Virus record (IMG/VR): IMGVR_UViG_2534681831_000034
Length of the DNA: 17,560 nt
DNA from: a virus
Lineage: Duplodnaviria; Heunggongvirae; Uroviricota; Caudoviricetes
Strand: one strand, 5' to 3'
Both the position numbers and the translations under genes were made by a program. Below, piece by piece: positions 11-7,923 of the stretch; the first letter of the stretch is position 1; each line of letters opens with the position of its first letter. The notes beneath the pieces are model-generated. The model was given only the letters and a program-made list of their open reading frames with translations. It did no database searches and was not told the origin of the DNA.

Positions 11-592
11 TTACCCAGCAATAGGATTAAATCTCACCGCATCCTGCAAGTAATCCGGCGCAAGATGGGCATAAATCATCGTTGTCTGAATCTTTGCGTG
101 CCCCAGAATTTTCTGGAGCGTCAGAATATTGCCGCCGTTCATCATGAAATGACTGGCGAAGGTGTGGCGCAGCGCATGAACAGCCTGGCCGTCAGGAACA
201 TCAGGTGCGACCGTTTTGATGACATCGCGAACCAATGAATAATCCAGCGTCGGAAACACCAGTTTCCCGCCCCGTTTTTTGATCTTTTCAAACAGGCTTT
301 CAGAAATAGGAACGGTACGGTTTTTGCTGTTCTTCGTTTTTGAAAAAGTGATTCGACAATGAAGAACACGGCGCTGCTCCAGTGCCGCTACCTCGCCCCA
401 TCGCGCCCCGGTCGACAGAAGGATTTCGACGGCCAGCCGTTCATCGGGATTTTCAGCCAGTGCATCCAGCAACTGAACACATTCAGACTTACTCAGATAT
501 CCCATTTCACGCTCGTTAACCTTCATTCCTTTAAGGCCTTGAACGGGGTTATCGTTAAGAAAATGGCCGGATGAGATGAGTGCGGTAAACAT
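11..592 (-). pseudogene. int: 5'-truncated P2-type tyrosine integrase (C-terminal catalytic domain only)
   Basis: The translation carries the catalytic-domain signatures of tyrosine recombinases: TGARWGEV (box A Arg), HALRHTFASHFMMNGGNILTLQKILGH and TTMIYAHL (catalytic Tyr). The frame is open only 18 codons upstream of the first Met (in-frame stop at 647-649), and no N-terminal arm or core-binding domain is found in any frame upstream. A P2-type integrase is about 337 aa; about 190 aa are present. Confidence 0.7.
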
Positions 593-694: not shown

Positions 695-953
695 TGTGGA
701 TACCCTTTATTTCACAGTAGACGACTGCTACCGCGTGGACTTCACACCACACGGACTGGCGTTGCACTGCCTGACACCGCACGGCGAATCACTGCTGGCG
801 TATTACGACTCCCCGGCCTCCGTATTTGCGGCAATGCTGGCGCATCGCACTGCTGGCGGGTGTGCCTCGCTGAGTGAATACACCGCTGAATTTAACCGCC
901 TTTCCACCATCTTCTTGCAGGAGTGGCAGCGCGTGACGGGATACCAGCCATGA
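695..953 (+). CDS. hypothetical small protein, translationally coupled to the replication gene A
   Basis: ORF in the six-frame track (576-953). I prefer the GTG at 695 because it follows a GGAGA Shine-Dalgarno-like sequence, and because the 576 start would overlap the integrase remnant on the opposite strand. Its stop (TGA 951-953) overlaps the ATG of A at 950 (ATGA). No motif recognised. Confidence 0.35.
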
Positions 954-3790
954 GTGAGTTTGCATGGAGCTGGAATGAACCACGACCAGCCATTGATCCG
1001 GCCAGATTTACGGAGCACAGGCAGGAAACTGAAACCGACCTGCAACGCGCCATCCGTTACTACCTTGAGGCAGACAAAAAGGCTCTGGAAGAACAGGAAG
1101 CGAAGGAGGAAGCCTTTTTCGCACAATCCACCGTGGGTAAAAAACTCATGGCATCCCTTGAGGAAGCCGGACAGCGTGAAAAGCTGGCACAGAACATCAT
1201 CAGTAAGCGTCAGGCAACAGAACAAGACCCGGTGGCCCGTGCTTTTGCCACACTGAAGGTGCTTCCCGTTTATCTGCGTGAACCTCTGAGCCGCCACCTC
1301 TCTTTCCTGCGCAAAAAACAGGAAGCCGATCGCCAGAAAGGCAAAAAGAGCTGGCAGGCTGAACGCTACGCGCGCGGAACCCTGCGCAAAATATTCGAAC
1401 GTCTGGACCGCACCGATCACCGCTGGCTGACACCGGGTTATCGCTCCCTTGCCGGACGCGAACGCCTGGACGATTTGCTTTACCTGCCGCAGCTCAACAA
1501 ACACCAGATACAGACGCTGGCCACCATGACGGCGGCGATGTTCAGCAGCACCTTCGAAAAACTCTGCGATGGCTTTGGCGCGACTGATGGCGAACTGACC
1601 ATGGATGTAACGCTGAAGGCGTATCAGATGCTGGCCCGCATGGCGTTACACCTGCACGCCATGCCTCCACATTATGACGCACTGACAACAGACAAAGACC
1701 GGAGGAACGAACCGGACACGGAGCTGCTGCCGGGCGCAATCCTTCGCCTGACCTGTGCGGAATGGTGGAAACGCAAACTGTGGCTGTTACGTTGCGAGTG
1801 GCGGGAAGAACAACTCCGCGCCGCCTGTCTGGTTTCCAGAAAAACATCGCCCTATCTGAGTCAGGACGCGTTAAGCGAGTTTCGCGCACAGCGCGAGAAA
1901 ACACGCGATTTCCTGAAAAGTTTCATGCTGGAAAATGAAGACGGGTTCACGATTGATCTCGAGACGGTGTATTACGCGGGAGTAAGTAACCCGGTTCACC
2001 GTAAGGCAGAAATGATGGCCACCATGAAGGGACTGGAACTTCTGGCCGAAGCCCGTGGCGACAGAGCGGTGTTTCTGACCGTCACCTGCCCGTCAAAATA
2101 CCACGCAACAACGGAGAACGGTCATCCGAACCCCAAATGGAACGGGGCCACCATGCGCGACTCCAGCGATTACCTGGTTAACACGTTTTTTGCGGCGGTC
2201 CGCAAAAAACTGAACCGCGACGGCCTGCGCTGGTATGGCATCCGCACGGTGGAGCCTCACCATGACGGCACTGTGCACTGGCATATGATGGTCTTTGCAC
2301 ATCCGGACGAGATTGAAACCATCGTGTCCCACGTCTGCGATATTGCCATTCAGGAGGACCGCCACGAGCTGGGCGATGACATAACTCCGCGTTTTAAGGC
2401 GGAGTATGTCGACGGCTCAAAAGGCACACCAACCAGCTACATCGCCACCTACATCGGAAAGAACCTGGACAGCCGCGCCGTGGATGGCATCGACCCGAAA
2501 ACGGGCAAGCCACGCGTTGACCACGAAACCGGAAAATCAATGGCCGAGAGCGTGGAGCGCGCCATCGGCTGGGCGCGCCTTCACCGGGTCCGTCAGTTCC
2601 AGTTCTTTGGCATCCCCTCCCGTCAGGTGTGGCGTGAACTGCGCCGCCTTGCCAGCCAGATGGCACGCAATCCGGAAGGCCCGCAACGGCTGAAAGATGA
2701 TGCAATGGATGCGGTACTCGCTGCCGCCGATGCCGGGTGTTTTGCCACCTACATTGAAAAACAGGGCGGCGTACTTGTTCCACGCAAAGACTACCTGATT
2801 CGCACCGCCTACGACCTCGCAGATGAGCTGAATGATTACGGCGAACAGAGCGTACAGATTTACGGGATCTGGTCACCACTCATCGGGGAATCCTCCCGTG
2901 TGTGCACGCATCCGGATAACTGGAAACTGGTAAGACGTAAACCGGAAACGGAAGACAGCGCCCGCGAAAATGGTTTTGACCTTCAGGGCGGCCCTGCCGC
3001 CCCTTGGACTCGTGGCAATAACTGTCCCCGTGTACAGGAAACGGACAACAACGGGGCAGAACAGCCGGAAGAACGGCCAGCACCGTGGCCGCAGCTCCCT
3101 GACGGCGTTGAAGTGAACGAATGGATGCGCTCACTGAAACGGCACGAACGCCGGGCGCTGATGCGTTCGCTTCGTGACAAACAGGCAAAAAACAGCAGTG
3201 ATGAAATGCAGAGCTGGACACAGAGCCGCAAACAGCAGCGGCCTTTGCCTGATAACCACGAATTACTCGCTAAAGAATGGCGGGAGTCTGCCGAATCTCT
3301 CGGCCTGCATATCGGTGAACAGCAGATGCAGCACCTGCTACGGGGCGGCAGCCTGTACGTTGACGGCAGCATCATTGCACCGCAGGGATATGAAATTGTA
3401 CGCAAACCGGATACCCGCCCGTACAGCCGAATCACGCAGCTCTGGCAGCACCTGAGCCGTAATCACGGCGTAAGCAGCACGGAGATCCGCCATAACCCGG
3501 TCGCCAGCTATCTGGCACAGCTGGGGGCATCAGACCCCGAAGCCGCCGCACGCCTGGCATCCGCACTTCAGCAGGATCAGAACACCATGAAAACACCCGT
3601 TACCGTGCTTTCTGACATGCTGCGCGCCATCCGCGACGCAGAGCACGCACAGAGAATCAGTGAAACCACTGAACGCGCCAGCCGCAAAGCAGACCTGCTG
3701 CAGGGTGGCCTGACCAGTGGAAACAAAAAACAGACAGAAACGGGACTCACGAATCCCGTAAATGAGCAAAAAACGCGCAGCGATATATGA
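950..3790 (+). CDS. A: phage replication initiation endonuclease, P2 gpA family (HUH rolling-circle nickase)
   Basis: Long ORF (track 923-3790). It contains an HUH-type metal-binding motif (HWHMMVF) and a paired-tyrosine motif (YIATYIGK) typical of the P2 A / phiX174 A superfamily. The start at ATG 950 is preferred over GTG 923 because of the ATGA coupling with the upstream ORF; either is possible. The protein is about 200 aa longer at the C-terminus than P2 gpA as I remember it (761 aa). Confidence 0.8.
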   Translation: MSEFAWSWNEPRPAIDPARFTEHRQETETDLQRAIRYYLEADKKALEEQEAKEEAFFAQSTVGKKLMASLEEAGQREKLAQNIISKRQATEQDPVARAFATLKVLPVYLREPLSRHLSFLRKKQEADRQKGKKSWQAERYARGTLRKIFERLDRTDHRWLTPGYRSLAGRERLDDLLYLPQLNKHQIQTLATMTAAMFSSTFEKLCDGFGATDGELTMDVTLKAYQMLARMALHLHAMPPHYDALTTDKDRRNEPDTELLPGAILRLTCAEWWKRKLWLLRCEWREEQLRAACLVSRKTSPYLSQDALSEFRAQREKTRDFLKSFMLENEDGFTIDLETVYYAGVSNPVHRKAEMMATMKGLELLAEARGDRAVFLTVTCPSKYHATTENGHPNPKWNGATMRDSSDYLVNTFFAAVRKKLNRDGLRWYGIRTVEPHHDGTVHWHMMVFAHPDEIETIVSHVCDIAIQEDRHELGDDITPRFKAEYVDGSKGTPTSYIATYIGKNLDSRAVDGIDPKTGKPRVDHETGKSMAESVERAIGWARLHRVRQFQFFGIPSRQVWRELRRLASQMARNPEGPQRLKDDAMDAVLAAADAGCFATYIEKQGGVLVPRKDYLIRTAYDLADELNDYGEQSVQIYGIWSPLIGESSRVCTHPDNWKLVRRKPETEDSARENGFDLQGGPAAPWTRGNNCPRVQETDNNGAEQPEERPAPWPQLPDGVEVNEWMRSLKRHERRALMRSLRDKQAKNSSDEMQSWTQSRKQQRPLPDNHELLAKEWRESAESLGLHIGEQQMQHLLRGGSLYVDGSIIAPQGYEIVRKPDTRPYSRITQLWQHLSRNHGVSSTEIRHNPVASYLAQLGASDPEAAARLASALQQDQNTMKTPVTVLSDMLRAIRDAEHAQRISETTERASRKADLLQGGLTSGNKKQTETGLTNPVNEQKTRSDI

Positions 3791-3835
3791 AGCGCGCACA
3801 AAACAGGCAAAAACGGGATTTCAGAATCCCGTAAA
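3738..3835. promoter_or_regulatory. two copies of a 25-bp palindromic motif (AAACGGGA-N9-TCCCGTAAA); candidate parC centromere/operator or origin element
   Basis: Read directly: copy 1 at 3738-3762 (aaacgggactcacgaatcccgtaaa) and copy 2 at 3811-3835 (aaacgggatttcagaatcccgtaaa). They differ at 4 central positions, each has internal dyad symmetry (ACGGGA/TCCCGT), and their centres are 73 bp apart. Copy 1 lies in the last codons of A; copy 2 lies in the A-parM spacer, about 30 bp upstream of the parM start. Confidence 0.45.
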
Positions 3836-3866
3836 CGATTAATTAATCAACATAAGGAAAAGCGAC

Positions 3867-4826
3867 ATGAAAATTTGTATCGACGACGGCTCCACCAACA
3901 TCAAGCTGGCATGGACTGAGAACGGCGAACGCCGCAACGCCATCAGCCCGAACAGCTTCAAGTCGGAATGGTCTGCGCCGTTCGGTGGCACGCAGCCCGC
4001 GAACTACATGCTTGATGGCGTGCGCTATGGTTTTGATCCGGTCAGCGATCGCTTTGTCCAGACGACCGACACGCAATACCAATACAGTGATGTGAATGTC
4101 ATTGCCATTCATCACGCGCTGGTCAAATCAGGCATCACGCCACAGGAGGTGGATGTGGTTGTCACCCTGCCACTGAGCGAGTATTTCGACACAAACGCAC
4201 AGCCGGACATAGCCAACATCAACCGCAAAAAAGCGAACGTTATGCGCCCGGTGGAGTACCAGAACGGCGAAGCATTCACTATCCGTAACGTGCGGGTTAT
4301 GCCTGAATCCATTCCGGCTGGCTTTAAGGCACTGGCTGACATGAGTCCGTTTGAATCCCTGCTGATTGTGGATTTGGGCGGAACCACGCTGGATGTGGCA
4401 AAGGTTCAGGGGCAGCTGGCAGGTATCAGCCAGGTGTTTTGCGATCCACACGTAGGCGTTTCCCTGATGGCTGATGCCGTGCTGTCGGTGATGGCCACTA
4501 ACGGTATGCGTACCAGTCACCACATCGCCAATACCATTATTGAGCACCGTCACGATGAAGCCTGGCTGCGCCAGCACATTCACAATGACGCGCATTACAA
4601 CAGCCTGATGGCGGTTATTCGTGAAAAGGAGGAGACACTGAAACAACGAGTGATCCGCGCGCTGGCGGGTTTTTCCGGTTACGGGCGGGTGATGGTTGTC
4701 GGTGGAGGGGCGGAGATTGTGGCACCCGCTATCCGCGAAGCCTGCGGAGTTAATGCGACTTTCATCACGGACGGGGTGCCACATTTTGCTCTGGTTAATG
4801 GGCTGTACGCAATGAACAAGGAGTAA
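3867..4826 (+). CDS. parM: ParM/StbA-family actin-like plasmid segregation ATPase
   Basis: 319 aa with the actin-fold motifs IDDGSTNIKL (phosphate 1), DLGGTTLD (phosphate 2) and VVGGGAE (adenosine). It is collinear with plasmid R1 ParM (StbA) as I remember it. An AAGGA Shine-Dalgarno lies about 9 nt upstream of the ATG. Confidence 0.8.
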   Translation: MKICIDDGSTNIKLAWTENGERRNAISPNSFKSEWSAPFGGTQPANYMLDGVRYGFDPVSDRFVQTTDTQYQYSDVNVIAIHHALVKSGITPQEVDVVVTLPLSEYFDTNAQPDIANINRKKANVMRPVEYQNGEAFTIRNVRVMPESIPAGFKALADMSPFESLLIVDLGGTTLDVAKVQGQLAGISQVFCDPHVGVSLMADAVLSVMATNGMRTSHHIANTIIEHRHDEAWLRQHIHNDAHYNSLMAVIREKEETLKQRVIRALAGFSGYGRVMVVGGGAEIVAPAIREACGVNATFITDGVPHFALVNGLYAMNKE

Positions 4827-4830
4827 ACCA

Positions 4831-5142
4831 ATGACGACACCAACCAGAAGAATAAGTTTCTATCTGAAGCCAGCTGCCGTCAAGAACGAAGGAGAAGCAT
4901 GCGCCTGGCTGGACAGCCTTACACCAGAAGCCCGCAAAAGCGGCCAACGCGTGGCTTTTCTGGCCGGGCTGGCACTTCTGAAGACGAATCCGGCAGAGGC
5001 TTACCGACTGGCCGCATGGGCTGATGATGAGATGTTACCTGTGACACAAATCAGCTCAAAAAAGTTTGAAGCACAGTCTGCACCAGTGGCTAAGATAACC
5101 AGCCAGATGGCTGGGAATATCCGGGCGTTATTTCCTGAGTAA
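4831..5142 (+). CDS. parR: ParR/StbB-like centromere-binding adaptor
   Basis: 103 aa, starting 4 nt after the parM stop with an AAGGAG Shine-Dalgarno. The N-terminal region (RRISFYLKP...LDSLTPEARKSGQRVAFLAGLALLK) resembles the ribbon-helix-helix N-terminus of R1 ParR as remembered. Gene order parM then parR matches type II partition loci. Confidence 0.6.
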   Translation: MTTPTRRISFYLKPAAVKNEGEACAWLDSLTPEARKSGQRVAFLAGLALLKTNPAEAYRLAAWADDEMLPVTQISSKKFEAQSAPVAKITSQMAGNIRALFPE

Positions 5143-5270
5143 AAGCATCTGCGCGAAAAATGCTCACATTTATAGAAACAGTATCATTCCATTTGGCGCA
5201 CTTACTTCAATAATCGATCTGTTAAACAAATAGATTGTCTATTATCTATCGATTAAAACGATCAATTATC

Positions 5271-5299
5271 TTGACAGTAATGTGCCTTTTTGTAAGATC
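5271..5299 (+). promoter_or_regulatory. candidate sigma70 promoter (TTGACA-N16-TAAGAT)
   Basis: A perfect -35 hexamer TTGACA at 5271-5276 and a -10-like TAAGAT at 5293-5298, inside an AT-rich tract containing ATCGAT-centred inverted repeats. Predicted by eye only. Confidence 0.3.
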
Positions 5300-5347
5300 G
5301 TTCGCATTGTGAGCGACAAGATAATTGCGCGGCATTGTCCATGCAAA

Positions 5348-5490
5348 ACGCCCCAATAGCAGCAACTATTGGGGCGTAGAACTCGGTCGGACTCACTTAA
5401 CCTGATATGCGTGCCTTCCGAAGTAAATCAAAATGTGCGTCGTATATTTTATTGCTTACACGCACCTCTGTAAAGGCACGCATATTTTTC
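5348..5490 (+). promoter_or_regulatory. structured leader/attenuator-like RNA element upstream of the 5507 gene
   Basis: A perfect 12-bp stem hairpin (5348-5359 / 5366-5377, loop CAGCAA), then a perfect 13-bp inverted repeat (ATATGCGTGCCTT 5405-5417 / AAGGCACGCATAT 5473-5485) enclosing an inner GTGCGT/ACGCAC pair. The structure is followed by a T-run (5486-5489) and then the GAGG Shine-Dalgarno and GTG start of the downstream ORF. Confidence 0.4.
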
Positions 5491-5506
5491 CTATGAGGTA
5501 AATAAA

Positions 5507-5776
5507 GTGCGGGCTAAAACAGGTATTTGCAAGAACCCTCATCGTTATAACCCAACATTTCTGTCTCTCCCTGAATATCAAGGACAAGAAGGTCGGCACA
5601 AATGCGCTGCCTGTGCTTTTGAGCTAGGCATAAAAGATGCGCTTGAAGGACGCGCTATGGCTCAGAATGATTTAGTTTTAGCTAACATTCCGTTTAGCCA
5701 GGCTGGAACTGTAAGGCACAGAGATGCTTATGAAGCATATGTTCGTGGTTGGCGATTAATACACAGCAACAATTGA
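5507..5776 (+). CDS. small hypothetical protein with a putative C-x3-H...C-x2-C metal-binding motif
   Basis: 89-aa ORF with a GTG start preceded by GAGGT at about 7 nt. Cys8/His12/Cys33/Cys36 could form a zinc knuckle. It is AT-richer than the phage backbone and is followed immediately by a canonical intrinsic terminator. No family recognised. Confidence 0.5.
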   Translation: MRAKTGICKNPHRYNPTFLSLPEYQGQEGRHKCAACAFELGIKDALEGRAMAQNDLVLANIPFSQAGTVRHRDAYEAYVRGWRLIHSNN

Positions 5777-5785
5777 TATTTTTGA

Positions 5786-5808
5786 AGCGCCGATAAGGCG
5801 CTTTTTTT
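5786..5808 (+). terminator. rho-independent terminator
   Basis: GC stem AGCGCC (5786-5791) / GGCGCT (5797-5802) with loop GATAA, followed by a run of seven T (5802-5808), 10 nt after the stop of the 5507-5776 ORF. Confidence 0.7.
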
Positions 5809-6209
5809 GTTTGCACGATAGTGCACAAGTTTGCACAATTTTTTTGAACGACTTTTTGTACTTCCGGCCCGCGTGGCGGCTGGATCCGTCAAGGATCCGT
5901 ACGTGCACAAAAAACGCGTTTTTTCTACGCGCAGGTGACGGGGGAACAGCCCGCGTTTCAGGGGGGTAAACAGCATTCCCTGAACGATGTCGCAGAGACA
6001 CAACAGAATGGCCATATTTCTCACGCTGAGCATGAAAAAGGCGTGAGGGCTTTTGATTTGATGGGGTGAAAGGTAAGGCCGTCAAAATCGCACTGAGGCA
6101 GCGAGAACATACAGTCAACGCGGTGGGATTGCGTAAGAGTCTGACCGTCGATGGTGGCGATAAACTGGAAGGCGTCGTGAAATTATCTGATTGATACAGG
6201 AGCTGGAGA

Positions 6210-6238
6210 GCCGGGGCATAAATTTTTTATGCCCCGGC
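6210..6238. repeat. perfect 13-bp-stem hairpin (GCCGGGGCATAAA-TTT-TTTATGCCCCGGC)
   Basis: Read directly from the sequence. It lies about 100 bp upstream of the 6338 ORF and has no flanking U-tract on either strand outside the stem, so it is not a canonical terminator. Confidence 0.5.
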
Positions 6239-6337
6239 GAAGCAGCAGACAAGCGAAGCGCGTCAGTGATGCGGCACCTTGCCGACCACACTTCATAAGT
6301 GCAAAATACGAGCAAAGAAATCAATGGAGGCTGTTTT

Positions 6338-6862
6338 ATGGTCATTAATTACAAGCAGTTACGAGAAAAACGAGAGCAGGTAAAGGAAAGTTTTCGCCGC
6401 AATGAAGATCTGACCCCGCTTGTACACCTTGCTCAGGGAATTGTAGATGCTTATGAAATCTCTCTGGAGCTGCCATCACAGACATGGACTGATAGCGACG
6501 GTAATCGCCAGCATTACGTTTCATGCGGACTGGAAACAACTGAAGGGTTTCGCAGAATGCCTTTATCTCAGATTCCTGCCTCTACCCCCAAAGCAAGGGG
6601 CGGCAATGATGAGCGAAAACTGATTTTCAGCATTGAGACAGTGGTTGACGACACACCTGGCGAAGTCGCCTTCGTGCATACTCCTCTTTCGATCGCAATG
6701 TATAACGATGAAATACAGGTTCGCGTTAATAATAATATCGTGCCACTTAAAGAAGGTAATTCACCCTACACCACCGTTTGTGAAGCCATTCAATATTACG
6801 TTCTCTCTGAAATTGATAATCTCAAGCCTGACGGCACCCAGAAAATGGTTCAACTCTGGTAA
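6338..6862 (+). CDS. hypothetical 174-aa protein (cargo/moron gene, unknown function)
   Basis: ATG at 6338 is preceded by GGAGG at 7 nt (the track ORF begins at 6299, but that start has no ribosome-binding site). AT-richer codon composition than the flanking phage genes. It ends at a bidirectional terminator and is convergent with portal gene Q. No catalytic motif recognised. Confidence 0.55.
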   Translation: MVINYKQLREKREQVKESFRRNEDLTPLVHLAQGIVDAYEISLELPSQTWTDSDGNRQHYVSCGLETTEGFRRMPLSQIPASTPKARGGNDERKLIFSIETVVDDTPGEVAFVHTPLSIAMYNDEIQVRVNNNIVPLKEGNSPYTTVCEAIQYYVLSEIDNLKPDGTQKMVQLW

Positions 6863-6867
6863 AAAGG

Positions 6868-6893
6868 ACAGCCCCATCACGGGGCTGTTTTTT
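6868..6893. terminator. bidirectional rho-independent terminator between the convergent cargo gene and Q
   Basis: An 8-bp stem ACAGCCCC (6868-6875) / GGGGCTGT (6881-6888) with loop ATCAC, flanked by A5 on the left and T6 on the right, so a U-tract follows the stem on both strands. It overlaps the Q stop codon (6877-6879). Confidence 0.7.
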
Positions 6894-7923
6894 CATCAAG
6901 AAGAGCATAAGAATTAAAACGGATCACCTCTTCGCCAAGCCAGTCATTGATGTGCTTCATGGCCTCCATAACGGGCATCAGCTCGTTAATTGCATAAACC
7001 CGCGCGGCCTTCTCCACATCACCAAACGCACTTTTTTCGCCCGGCATCGCCCCCATCAGTTGCGGCGGAACACGGTGCGCAGCCAGCACATCATCACGGG
7101 ATGCCGCCTTAACATTCATGAACTCATCTTTTGCGGTGATCTGCTGGAACGGCAAAATTTGCACCCCCTCTTTGCCCCCGTTGGGCGCATGAATGAGCAC
7201 GTTTTTAAATGCACCACTACCACGTGCACCCTGTAATGTTTCTTTCAGGGAGTCCATGCTTTCGCGGTTTACCTGCGCTGCACCGATGTAGATGATGCAC
7301 CCGGCGTGGGATCCGTTGTCGTAATACAGTTTTCTGAACATGTCCGCCGAATGAGACAGGCTGGCCGAGAGTAATGCGCCGAGATATTCCGGCATGCCGT
7401 AGATTTCCTGGTTAATATCCGGATTCATCAGGTGGCACACTTTGCCAGGGCGAAACTGAAACGCGTCCTTGCCATCCTGCACATACCACCATGATTCAAG
7501 ATCGCTTCCGCGTCGCATGTATTTCGCCAGTGCGTGCCGTAATTTAAGCGGTTCGCCGAGCATATTGCTTCGAAGCTCAAGGTATGCGTTACCGAACACA
7601 AACCAGTCCAGCGCCAGCGCCGAGAAATCCTGCCGGGAAAGCAGCGGGTGCGGAATATAGCAGCCGAGCAATACATTGCGCTTAAAGTAAAGCGCAGACT
7701 GATGCCAGGACGTTTGCCGGGCGGCTCTTGCCAGACCGTACCAGTCCACCGGGGTTTCATACCACCGCCCGTTATCAGCACAGTACATATTGTCCAGCAA
7801 ATCATGCCCGGTCAGGCGATAAGGACCATCAAAAGTGAATGCACTGAGCGACGATTCTTTCCTGAGCGCATCAGCGAGATCAATGCGTGAACTCATGCGC
7901 ACTTTTTTATTTTTTCTGCTCAT
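6877..7923 (-). CDS. Q: portal protein, P2 gpQ family
   Basis: 348 aa, matching the length of P2 gpQ (about 344 aa) and its position immediately downstream of the terminase ATPase. Its ATG (7921-7923) overlaps the stop of the upstream gene (ATGA coupling). Confidence 0.85.
   Translation of the reverse strand: MSRKNKKVRMSSRIDLADALRKESSLSAFTFDGPYRLTGHDLLDNMYCADNGRWYETPVDWYGLARAARQTSWHQSALYFKRNVLLGCYIPHPLLSRQDFSALALDWFVFGNAYLELRSNMLGEPLKLRHALAKYMRRGSDLESWWYVQDGKDAFQFRPGKVCHLMNPDINQEIYGMPEYLGALLSASLSHSADMFRKLYYDNGSHAGCIIYIGAAQVNRESMDSLKETLQGARGSGAFKNVLIHAPNGGKEGVQILPFQQITAKDEFMNVKAASRDDVLAAHRVPPQLMGAMPGEKSAFGDVEKAARVYAINELMPVMEAMKHINDWLGEEVIRFNSYALLDEKTAP

Follow-up and report, generated by a model that had tools for sequence, protein, structure and literature searches.

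Two 16-bp dyads upstream of parM in a P88-like prophage: a candidate ParR-bound parC/operator

The DNA considered here is IMG/VR virus record IMGVR_UViG_2534681831_000034 (the window, meaning the whole stretch of 17,560 nucleotides, numbered from its first letter), and the element in question is a pair of palindromic repeats lying between the replication gene A and a partition gene pair, parM and parR. Sequence comparison identifies the window as a P88-like prophage (Xuanwuvirus, P2-like) carried by the E. coli O111:H8 chromosome: the region is 95–97% identical to Escherichia phage P88 and to other Xuanwuvirus (Peduoviridae, P2-like) genomes, and the chromosomes of O111:H8 strains 95NR1, 95JB1 and 8B match it at 100%, with the prophage adjoining btuC. 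The genes and repeat elements of the locus are as follows.

950–3790, plus strand: gene A, replication endonuclease of the gpA family (Pfam PF05840, 1.5e-129; RefSeq annotation by the Prokaryotic Genome Annotation Pipeline, PGAP)
3724–3765, no strand assigned: repeat unit 1, 42 nt, an A-rich leader plus palindrome, in the last A codons
3742–3757, no strand assigned: core site 1, GGGACTCACGAATCCC (population consensus GGGATTCACAAATCCC), proposed ParR site, from pattern scans and the variants of relatives
3797–3838, no strand assigned: repeat unit 2, 42 nt, intergenic between A and parM, identified as a direct repeat
3815–3830, no strand assigned: core site 2, GGGATTTCAGAATCCC, proposed ParR site, from pattern scans and the variants of relatives
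3867–4826, plus strand: parM, actin-like segregation ATPase, 319 residues (Pfam StbA_N 3.5e-82, ParM C-terminal 2.5e-67)
4831–5142, plus strand: parR, ribbon-helix-helix adaptor, 103 residues (Pfam PF10784, 9.8e-24)

The two 25-mers, AAACGGGACTCACGAATCCCGTAAA at 3738–3762 and AAACGGGATTTCAGAATCCCGTAAA at 3811–3835, are identical at 21 of 25 positions, all four mismatches being central, and their starts are 73 bp apart. The A frame reads through copy 1 in its final codons and stops (3788–3790) before copy 2 is reached; from the end of copy 2 it is 31 nt to the parM ATG at 3867 (36 nt if measured from the core). A preliminary description of this DNA, made from its letters alone, had reported two near-identical dyad-symmetric 25-mers with this spacing, straddling the A stop and placed immediately upstream of parM, and each of these particulars is confirmed. 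The pattern is confined to the two places: ACGGGA-N8-TCCCGT occurs in the whole window only at 3740–3759 and 3813–3832, the looser form ACGGGA-N6–9-TCCCGT gave two matches in the window against 0.00 expected (200 dinucleotide-preserving shuffles), and GGGATT-N4-AATCCC with up to two mismatches again found only these two places in the window. A repeat finder showed each palindrome to be the 3′ portion of a longer 42-nt direct repeat with an A-rich leader (CAAAAAACAGACAGAAACGGGACTCACGAATCCCGTAAATGA at 3724–3765 and CACAAAACAGGCAAAAACGGGATTTCAGAATCCCGTAAACGA at 3797–3838; 81% identical), and A-tracts at 3725–3730, 3768–3773, 3800–3803 and 3809–3813 are roughly in phase. The part kept in relatives is shorter, a 16-bp core GGGAYT-N4-AATCCC (3742–3757 and 3815–3830), and distant relatives retain GGG-N10-CCC only. 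No tandem array of direct 10–20-bp iterons of the kind present in R1, pB171, pSK41 and pCW3 was found upstream of parM in the window.

The repeats travel with parMR and not with gene A. A motif scan of IMG/VR for two GGGAYT-N4-AATCCC dyads 50–64 nt apart returned at least 120 loci, and among the motif matches listed 119 of 120 have a correctly oriented parM starting 37 nt downstream. According to the preliminary description, finding the same repeats in P2-like phages without parMR would have pointed to an origin or A-related function, and the near-constant presence of parM favours parC instead. In the reverse direction, all 78 loci retrieved through ParM alone keep both sites. Three further contexts (L055/L221, L074 and L197) have upstream DNA unrelated to the tail of the window A gene, with homology beginning at about 3722–3726, just 5′ of unit 1; the A proteins encoded beside the same repeats are there 31%, about 37% and 72% identical to that of the window, and in L055 an extra open reading frame (ORF) of 159 residues lies between A and the repeats. 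In most relatives the DNA homology ends on the right at 5142, which is the parR stop. As the left edge is at about 3722–3726 in three contexts and the right edge at 5142, the alignments define the mobile unit as 3722–5142, comprising repeat 1, repeat 2, parM and parR. A Hafnia prophage (L008, ParR 75% identical) carries the sites GGGATTCATGAATCCC and GGGATTTGAAAATCCC, also 73 bp apart, with the TGA that ends A at the centre of dyad 1; because the stop falls inside repeat 1, conservation of the repeat is not due to protein coding. In the alignment of L008 with the window, read by eye, identity rises from about 60% in the A tail to about 85–90% from about 3720 to the parM ATG. From these comparisons the repeats belong to the parM–parR cassette rather than to gene A, and gene A is outside the partition module even though its frame enters repeat 1. 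The last 20 or so codons of the window A gene are the proposed centromere DNA read in frame; it should also be noted that the A protein (946 residues) has, in the stretch 3040–3790, a C-terminal extension of about 200 residues that is absent from the A proteins of P2 (761 residues) and 186 (694 residues).

Variation among close relatives was followed in 46 upstream sequences, all distinct. Positions that commonly vary are four in the 4-nt spacers (3746, 3751, 3822 and 3824), two at the outer flank (3813 and 3835) and one in a half-site (C3830T); no compensatory second change that would restore pairing was seen among the 46. The half-site change is part of a site 2 haplotype, GCGGGATTTAAAAATCCTGTAACC, in which the right half-site CCC becomes CCT and four further changes are linked to it; this haplotype occurs with all ParR classes and may represent a weaker or drifting site.

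Both proteins of the cassette have recognizable plasmid counterparts. The window ParM matches the R1 ParM structure 1mwk (E value 3.5e-92) and is 46% identical to IncF StbA. The window ParR was too divergent to be linked with plasmid ParRs by BLAST, and a single-sequence search of the PDB with it gave no match, but a profile of window-type ParRs matches the ribbon-helix-helix ParR of pB171 (PDB 2JD3) with an E value of 1.3e-14. Of 101 distinct segments, 94 have a full-length parM and 96 a full-length parR (93–95%), so the cassette is being maintained. The E. coli ParRs form three allelic classes (about 98, 84 and 55% identical to the window ParR), which share residues 1–30 and the C-terminal tail NIRALFPE and differ in the middle/linker only. 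All three classes sit behind the same dyads and no association was seen between ParR class and dyad variant; none would be expected, since the DNA-binding N-termini of the three classes are identical. In the 55% class the DNA homology stops about 18 codons into parR (breakpoint near 4885), which suggests that this class arose by recombination inside the gene. An E. coli-type ParR, 83% identical, is also present on a 226-kb contig of an assembly labelled Vagococcus sp. WN89Y; an enterobacterial prophage is unexpected under a Firmicute label, and contamination or mislabelling is likely.

More distant cassettes, with ParMs 53–62% identical to the Hafnia L008 ParM used as query, were found in P2-like prophages of Hafnia, Plesiomonas, Serratia and Enterobacter, always between gene A and the portal gene. 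A Hafnia locus (L140, and likewise L228) has the sites GGGATTGAGGAAACCC and GGGTTCATTAAATCCC, 73 bp apart, and a Plesiomonas locus (L142) has GGGACAACAAAAACCC and GGGACAACACTAACCC, 72 bp apart. In the L140 and L142 sites only GGG and CCC stay complementary, leaving stems of 3–4 bp, and there is no T-tail on either strand. Predicted hairpins of about −10 kcal/mol in the window compare with −4 to −5 kcal/mol in seven of the eight L140/L142 strand folds, the exception being the minus strand of L142 copy 2 (−8.4 kcal/mol). Conservation of the sites is therefore independent of hairpin potential as well as of coding, and because half-sites and spacing are kept while pairing is lost, a protein-binding site is favoured over an RNA or DNA hairpin. 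At L228 an ORF of 93 residues and a duplicated parM leader (TATTAA..AGG..TTATTTATG) are inserted between the dyads and parM (1072–1545 of that locus), giving the order dyads–orf93–parM–parR with the dyads still at the head of the operon.

The type of repeat matches the type of ParR. The N-terminal strand of ParR reads TRR[IV]SFYL in every clade with the GGG-N10-CCC pair (the window clade, L008, L140, L228 and L142), and the pair accompanies the TRR-type strand in five of five clades. The Serratia and Enterobacter P2-like cassettes (L143, L144 and L229) resemble the window in having the same gene pair between A and the portal gene, but their ParRs have the strand NRKISFYL and their upstream DNA carries two 19–20-nt inverted arms, GGAACGAAATAGAAAAAT, with 28 nt between them. 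These inverted-arm elements are at 4882–4947 in L143, 4883–4950 in L144 and 1422–1487 in L229 (Serratia, Enterobacter and metagenome P2-like prophages). Plasmid ParRs have yet other strands (NRKCSFYI in IncL/M and IncI, SRRCSFEL in a second IncI-type, RRKITFYL in Cronobacter and RRTIAFKL in the R1-type IncF), and the plasmid upstream regions carry repeats, which in the R1-type, IncL/M and Cronobacter loci are 10–11-bp tandem iterons. Across these five TRR clades, three NRK loci and four plasmid types, repeat type tracks the ParR N-terminal strand. Scans of viral contigs with the L140 and L142 ParRs gave no further TRR-type cassettes, and a scan of genome contigs with a ParR alignment gave three loci only.

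Arc, Mnt, CopG and omega belong to the ribbon-helix-helix class and occupy inverted half-sites one turn apart as dimers of dimers, and the heptads of the omega protein are bound in direct or inverted orientation. The half-sites in the window are likewise inverted and about one helical turn apart, which would suit two ribbon-helix-helix dimers placed in adjacent major grooves, although this is a resemblance only and these proteins are repressors, unlike the window ParR, which is a ParM adaptor. With R1/NR1 (ParMRC, stbA–stbB) the window shares a cis site directly upstream of a homologous parM–parR pair and a ParR of the same Pfam family, PF10784. The spacing is shared too: the two blocks of plasmid parC are offset by 72 bp in the R1-type IncF locus (L016, 1329–1476), by 73 bp in IncL/M (L014, 1366–1478) and by 73 bp in Cronobacter (L231, 1426–1527), so that the window repeats are in the same 72–73 bp register, and a conserved geometry of the ParR–parC complex across very different repeat sequences is possible. 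R1 parC consists of two sets of five 11-bp iterons with a promoter-holding stretch of 39 bp between them, bound by approximately one ParR dimer per iteron, and its DNA is strongly curved (PMC2241845), which the roughly in-phase A-tracts of the window recall. The iterons of R1 are tandem and direct (AAACCCAAAAA-like) and are accompanied by a strong promoter (TTGACT-16-TAAACT); the window has only two 16-bp dyads and no strong promoter, and the replicon that carries it is a chromosomal prophage. Among ParRs of solved structure the closest is that of pB171 (2JD3), also a ribbon-helix-helix adaptor with a small minimal site. The minimal site of pB171 par1 is two 10-bp repeats upstream of parM, described as direct (PMC9426499); these are adjacent, unlike the inverted repeats of the window, which are 73 bp apart. 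In sum of features, the window sites have the cis position upstream of the genes, an intact ParM and ParR, at least two repeated units and co-inheritance, and they lack the tandem direct iterons.

From these observations the reading that we favour, with a probability of roughly 0.7, is that the repeats are a two-site, dyad-symmetric parC/operator bound by ParR, belonging to the type II ParM/ParR cassette of a P2-like prophage. The preliminary description had proposed a parC centromere here, and co-inheritance with parMR, the match with the ParR strand and the 72–73 bp register of the plasmid loci all support that proposal. In such a mechanism the N-terminal ribbon-helix-helix strand of ParR (TRRISFYL) would read the GGG and CCC half-sites of each 16-bp dyad, the likely mode being two ParR dimers per dyad on half-sites about one helical turn apart. 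The dyads, 73 bp or about seven turns apart, would then present ParR on the same face of the helix and, together with the in-phase A-tracts, could form a compact, bent ParR–DNA complex. This complex would cap the ends of ParM filaments through the conserved C-terminal tail of ParR, NIRALFPE, and would also repress transcription of parM–parR. ParR binding, its stoichiometry, bending, autoregulation and a centromere or segregation activity are what we infer at this locus.

Repression is proposed because the sites flank or overlap both of the candidate promoters, which were obtained from our own position weight matrix (PWM) scan.

3762–3789, plus strand: P1, ATGAGC-16-TATATG, weak candidate promoter between the sites
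3820–3847, plus strand: P2, TTCAGA-16-ATTAAT, weak candidate promoter

The distance from P1 to the ATG equals that of the R1-type promoter. For P2, the spacer of site 2 contains the −35, and a ATTAATCAA box conserved among the window, L008, L140 and L142 contains the −10; P2 scores 7.7 and 9.6 in the Hafnia relatives against 2.1 in the window. Whichever of the two were used, it would be flanked or overlapped by the dyads.

Several points weigh against a ParR-bound centromere and operator at this position. According to a review all characterized ParRs bind direct repeats and not dyads (PMC9426499), and there are only two sites here as opposed to the ten iterons of R1. Site 2 has a natural variant, TCCC to TCCT (C3830T), in 12 of the 46 distinct sequences. 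The 179-bp stretch 3722–3900 was found in 1304 of 5426 complete E. coli genomes (about one-quarter), and nearly all of the copies are chromosomal (1441 placements versus 2 on plasmids), where a centromere has no obvious use. A consensus scan of 3400–3900 found no sigma-70 promoter, and the window candidates have PWM scores of about 2 compared with 11–14 for the promoters that lie, as strong ones, between the repeat blocks of plasmid parC loci (IncF R1-type, IncL/M and Cronobacter). The AlphaFold2 monomer model of ParR is of low confidence (predicted local distance difference test score, pLDDT, 54). Finally, literature searches and the P88 genome paper yielded no binding, footprint, reporter or stability experiment on this cassette and nothing on partition functions of P88-like or Xuanwuvirus phages.

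The other explanations for the repeats fare less well. The preliminary description had offered as its alternative an origin role, in which the repeats would be part of the rolling-circle origin nicked by the A protein; the P2 and 186 origins do lie inside the 3′ part of gene A, and repeat 1 is in the last codons of the A frame. The P2-type origin sequence, however, maps elsewhere in the window.

2987–3026, plus strand: predicted gpA origin, with hairpin GGCGGC-CCT-GCCGCC and nick region CCCCTTGGAC, CAATAACTGT, by homology with P2 and 186

The annotated A nicks, at nt 29892 of P2 and nt 28576 of 186, are both in codons for ...APRSPVNNC..., to which the window A aligns with ...AAPWTRGNNC... (DNA GGCGGCCCTGCCGCCCCTTGGACTCGTGGCAATAACTGT at 2987–3026). 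The elements of the origin follow in the order GC hairpin, CCYYKGGAS and then TGKCAATAACTGT (TCGTGGCAATAACTGT in the window). In the ten A genes examined (the window, P88, P2, 186, L008, L055, L140, L142, L143 and L144), some of whose products are only about 30% identical as proteins, there is exactly one AAYAAYTGY each, preceded in all ten by CCYYKGGAS and a short GC hairpin whose arms vary by lineage yet remain complementary (GGCGGC/GCCGCC, GGCCGC/GCGGCC, GGCAGC/GCTGCC and GGTCGC/GCGACC). By position, the nick in the window is predicted to fall at about 3005/3006, with repeat 1 some 735 bp downstream of it; the origin element (2987–3026) is about 710 bp upstream of repeat 1. The conserved nick-region sequence is absent from 3720–3840 and the repeats have no similarity to it; moreover, three different A lineages precede the same repeats, and in L055 another ORF intervenes between A and the repeats. 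We give an origin role almost no credence.

A case of a different kind can be made from the minus strand, where the hairpins are followed by T-rich tails (ACGGGATTCTGAAATCCCGT TTTTGCCTGT and ACGGGATTCGTGAGTCCCGT TTCTGTCTGT), both score as terminator-like and the RNA hairpins are predicted at about −10 kcal/mol; the repeats would then be two tandem intrinsic terminators for leftward transcription, shielding A from antisense through parM. No minus-strand gene ends at the repeats, however, the late operon has a terminator of its own right after the portal gene (6888–6868), the homologous L140 and L142 sites have neither stem pairing nor a T-tail, and natural variants break pairs without compensation. 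We consider this explanation very improbable; at most, the A-rich leader found in the clade of E. coli and Hafnia L008 gives the sites a terminator-like appearance as a by-product. On the plus strand there is no U-tract after the stem-loops, although these are predicted to fold at −8.7 and −10.7 kcal/mol in a region that is at once the 3′ end of A and parM's 5′ leader; as RNA hairpins they could modulate read-through, stability or translation of the A–parM junction transcript, but hairpin potential is not conserved and no Rfam match falls at the repeats. The same dyad symmetry would suit any dimeric DNA-binding protein, so that the sites might alternatively be operators for a phage regulator or host factor other than ParR. 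Against this, the sites move with parMR among different neighbouring genes, their type tracks the ParR strand, and the window prophage still has them after losing its immunity and early regulators. Taken together, the non-ParR operator and the RNA hairpin seem to us improbable. The pair might also be an inert relic of a chance duplication, kept only because it rides on a prophage that spread recently; this we find scarcely credible. Most E. coli copies are 95–100% identical, so conservation within the clade says little, but the motif pair and its spacing persist where ParM is only 62% identical and the surrounding DNA is unalignable, and an E. coli–Hafnia comparison shows stronger conservation upstream of parM than in the neighbouring A coding sequence.

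The remainder of the prophage can be described briefly. It is about 2.5 kb shorter than an intact relative in the O26:H11 strain 11368, which has a full integrase, a helix-turn-helix repressor, a cox-like gene and several small early genes at the corresponding place; what the window lacks is the N-terminal part of the integrase, the repressor, cox and a number of early genes, and in strain 95NR1 the prophage has no early promoter region. The prophage is thus defective, with an integrase fragment of 193 residues (11–592, minus strand) abutting an ORF of 125 residues (576–953) that is followed by gene A, and between 1 and 1245 the sole DNA match to P88 or phage 520873 is 161 bp at 70% identity (19–179, in the integrase fragment). 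Between parR and the portal gene, 5143–6870 is a variable cargo region that differs among relatives. It contains facing promoter-like sites at 5271–5298 (plus strand) and 5474–5446 (minus strand) and terminator-like hairpins at 5784–5804 (plus strand) and 5932–5914 (minus strand). An Rfam search of 3400–6900 gave no match except a sub-threshold one to sar antisense RNA at 5348–5377 on the minus strand (22 bits, compared with a gathering score of 43).

From textbooks, type II partition systems are known as machinery of plasmids, and their centromeres are described as direct iteron arrays. Here the same machinery appears as a mobile cassette in integrating P2-like prophages, with a candidate centromere reduced to two dyads. 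The target of the cassette may be phage circles that have excised or are replicating; alternatively, it may confer incompatibility. A bolder form of the proposal, which we regard as doubtful but worth stating, is that a ParR of the R1/pB171 family recognizes a 16-bp dyad (GGG-N10-CCC) in place of direct iterons and that two such dyads, seven helical turns apart, make up a complete minimal centromere, intact together with its ParM motor in about one-quarter of E. coli chromosomes and acting on phage circles or by exclusion, and not on a plasmid. Were this so, phage circles would, for example, be spread to both daughters during induction or before integration, or plasmids and phages with a related parC would be excluded. 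For the annotation of these phages, the end of the A frame is proposed centromere DNA read by chance, with the predicted origin about 735 bp upstream. If ParR does bind the dyads, they would provide a very small, easily mutated model centromere, together with natural pairs of ParR strand and site (TRR with GGG-N10-CCC, NRK with GGAAC arms and the plasmid types with iterons) for studies of recognition specificity and incompatibility, and they would give a handle on why an integrating phage needs a segregation motor.

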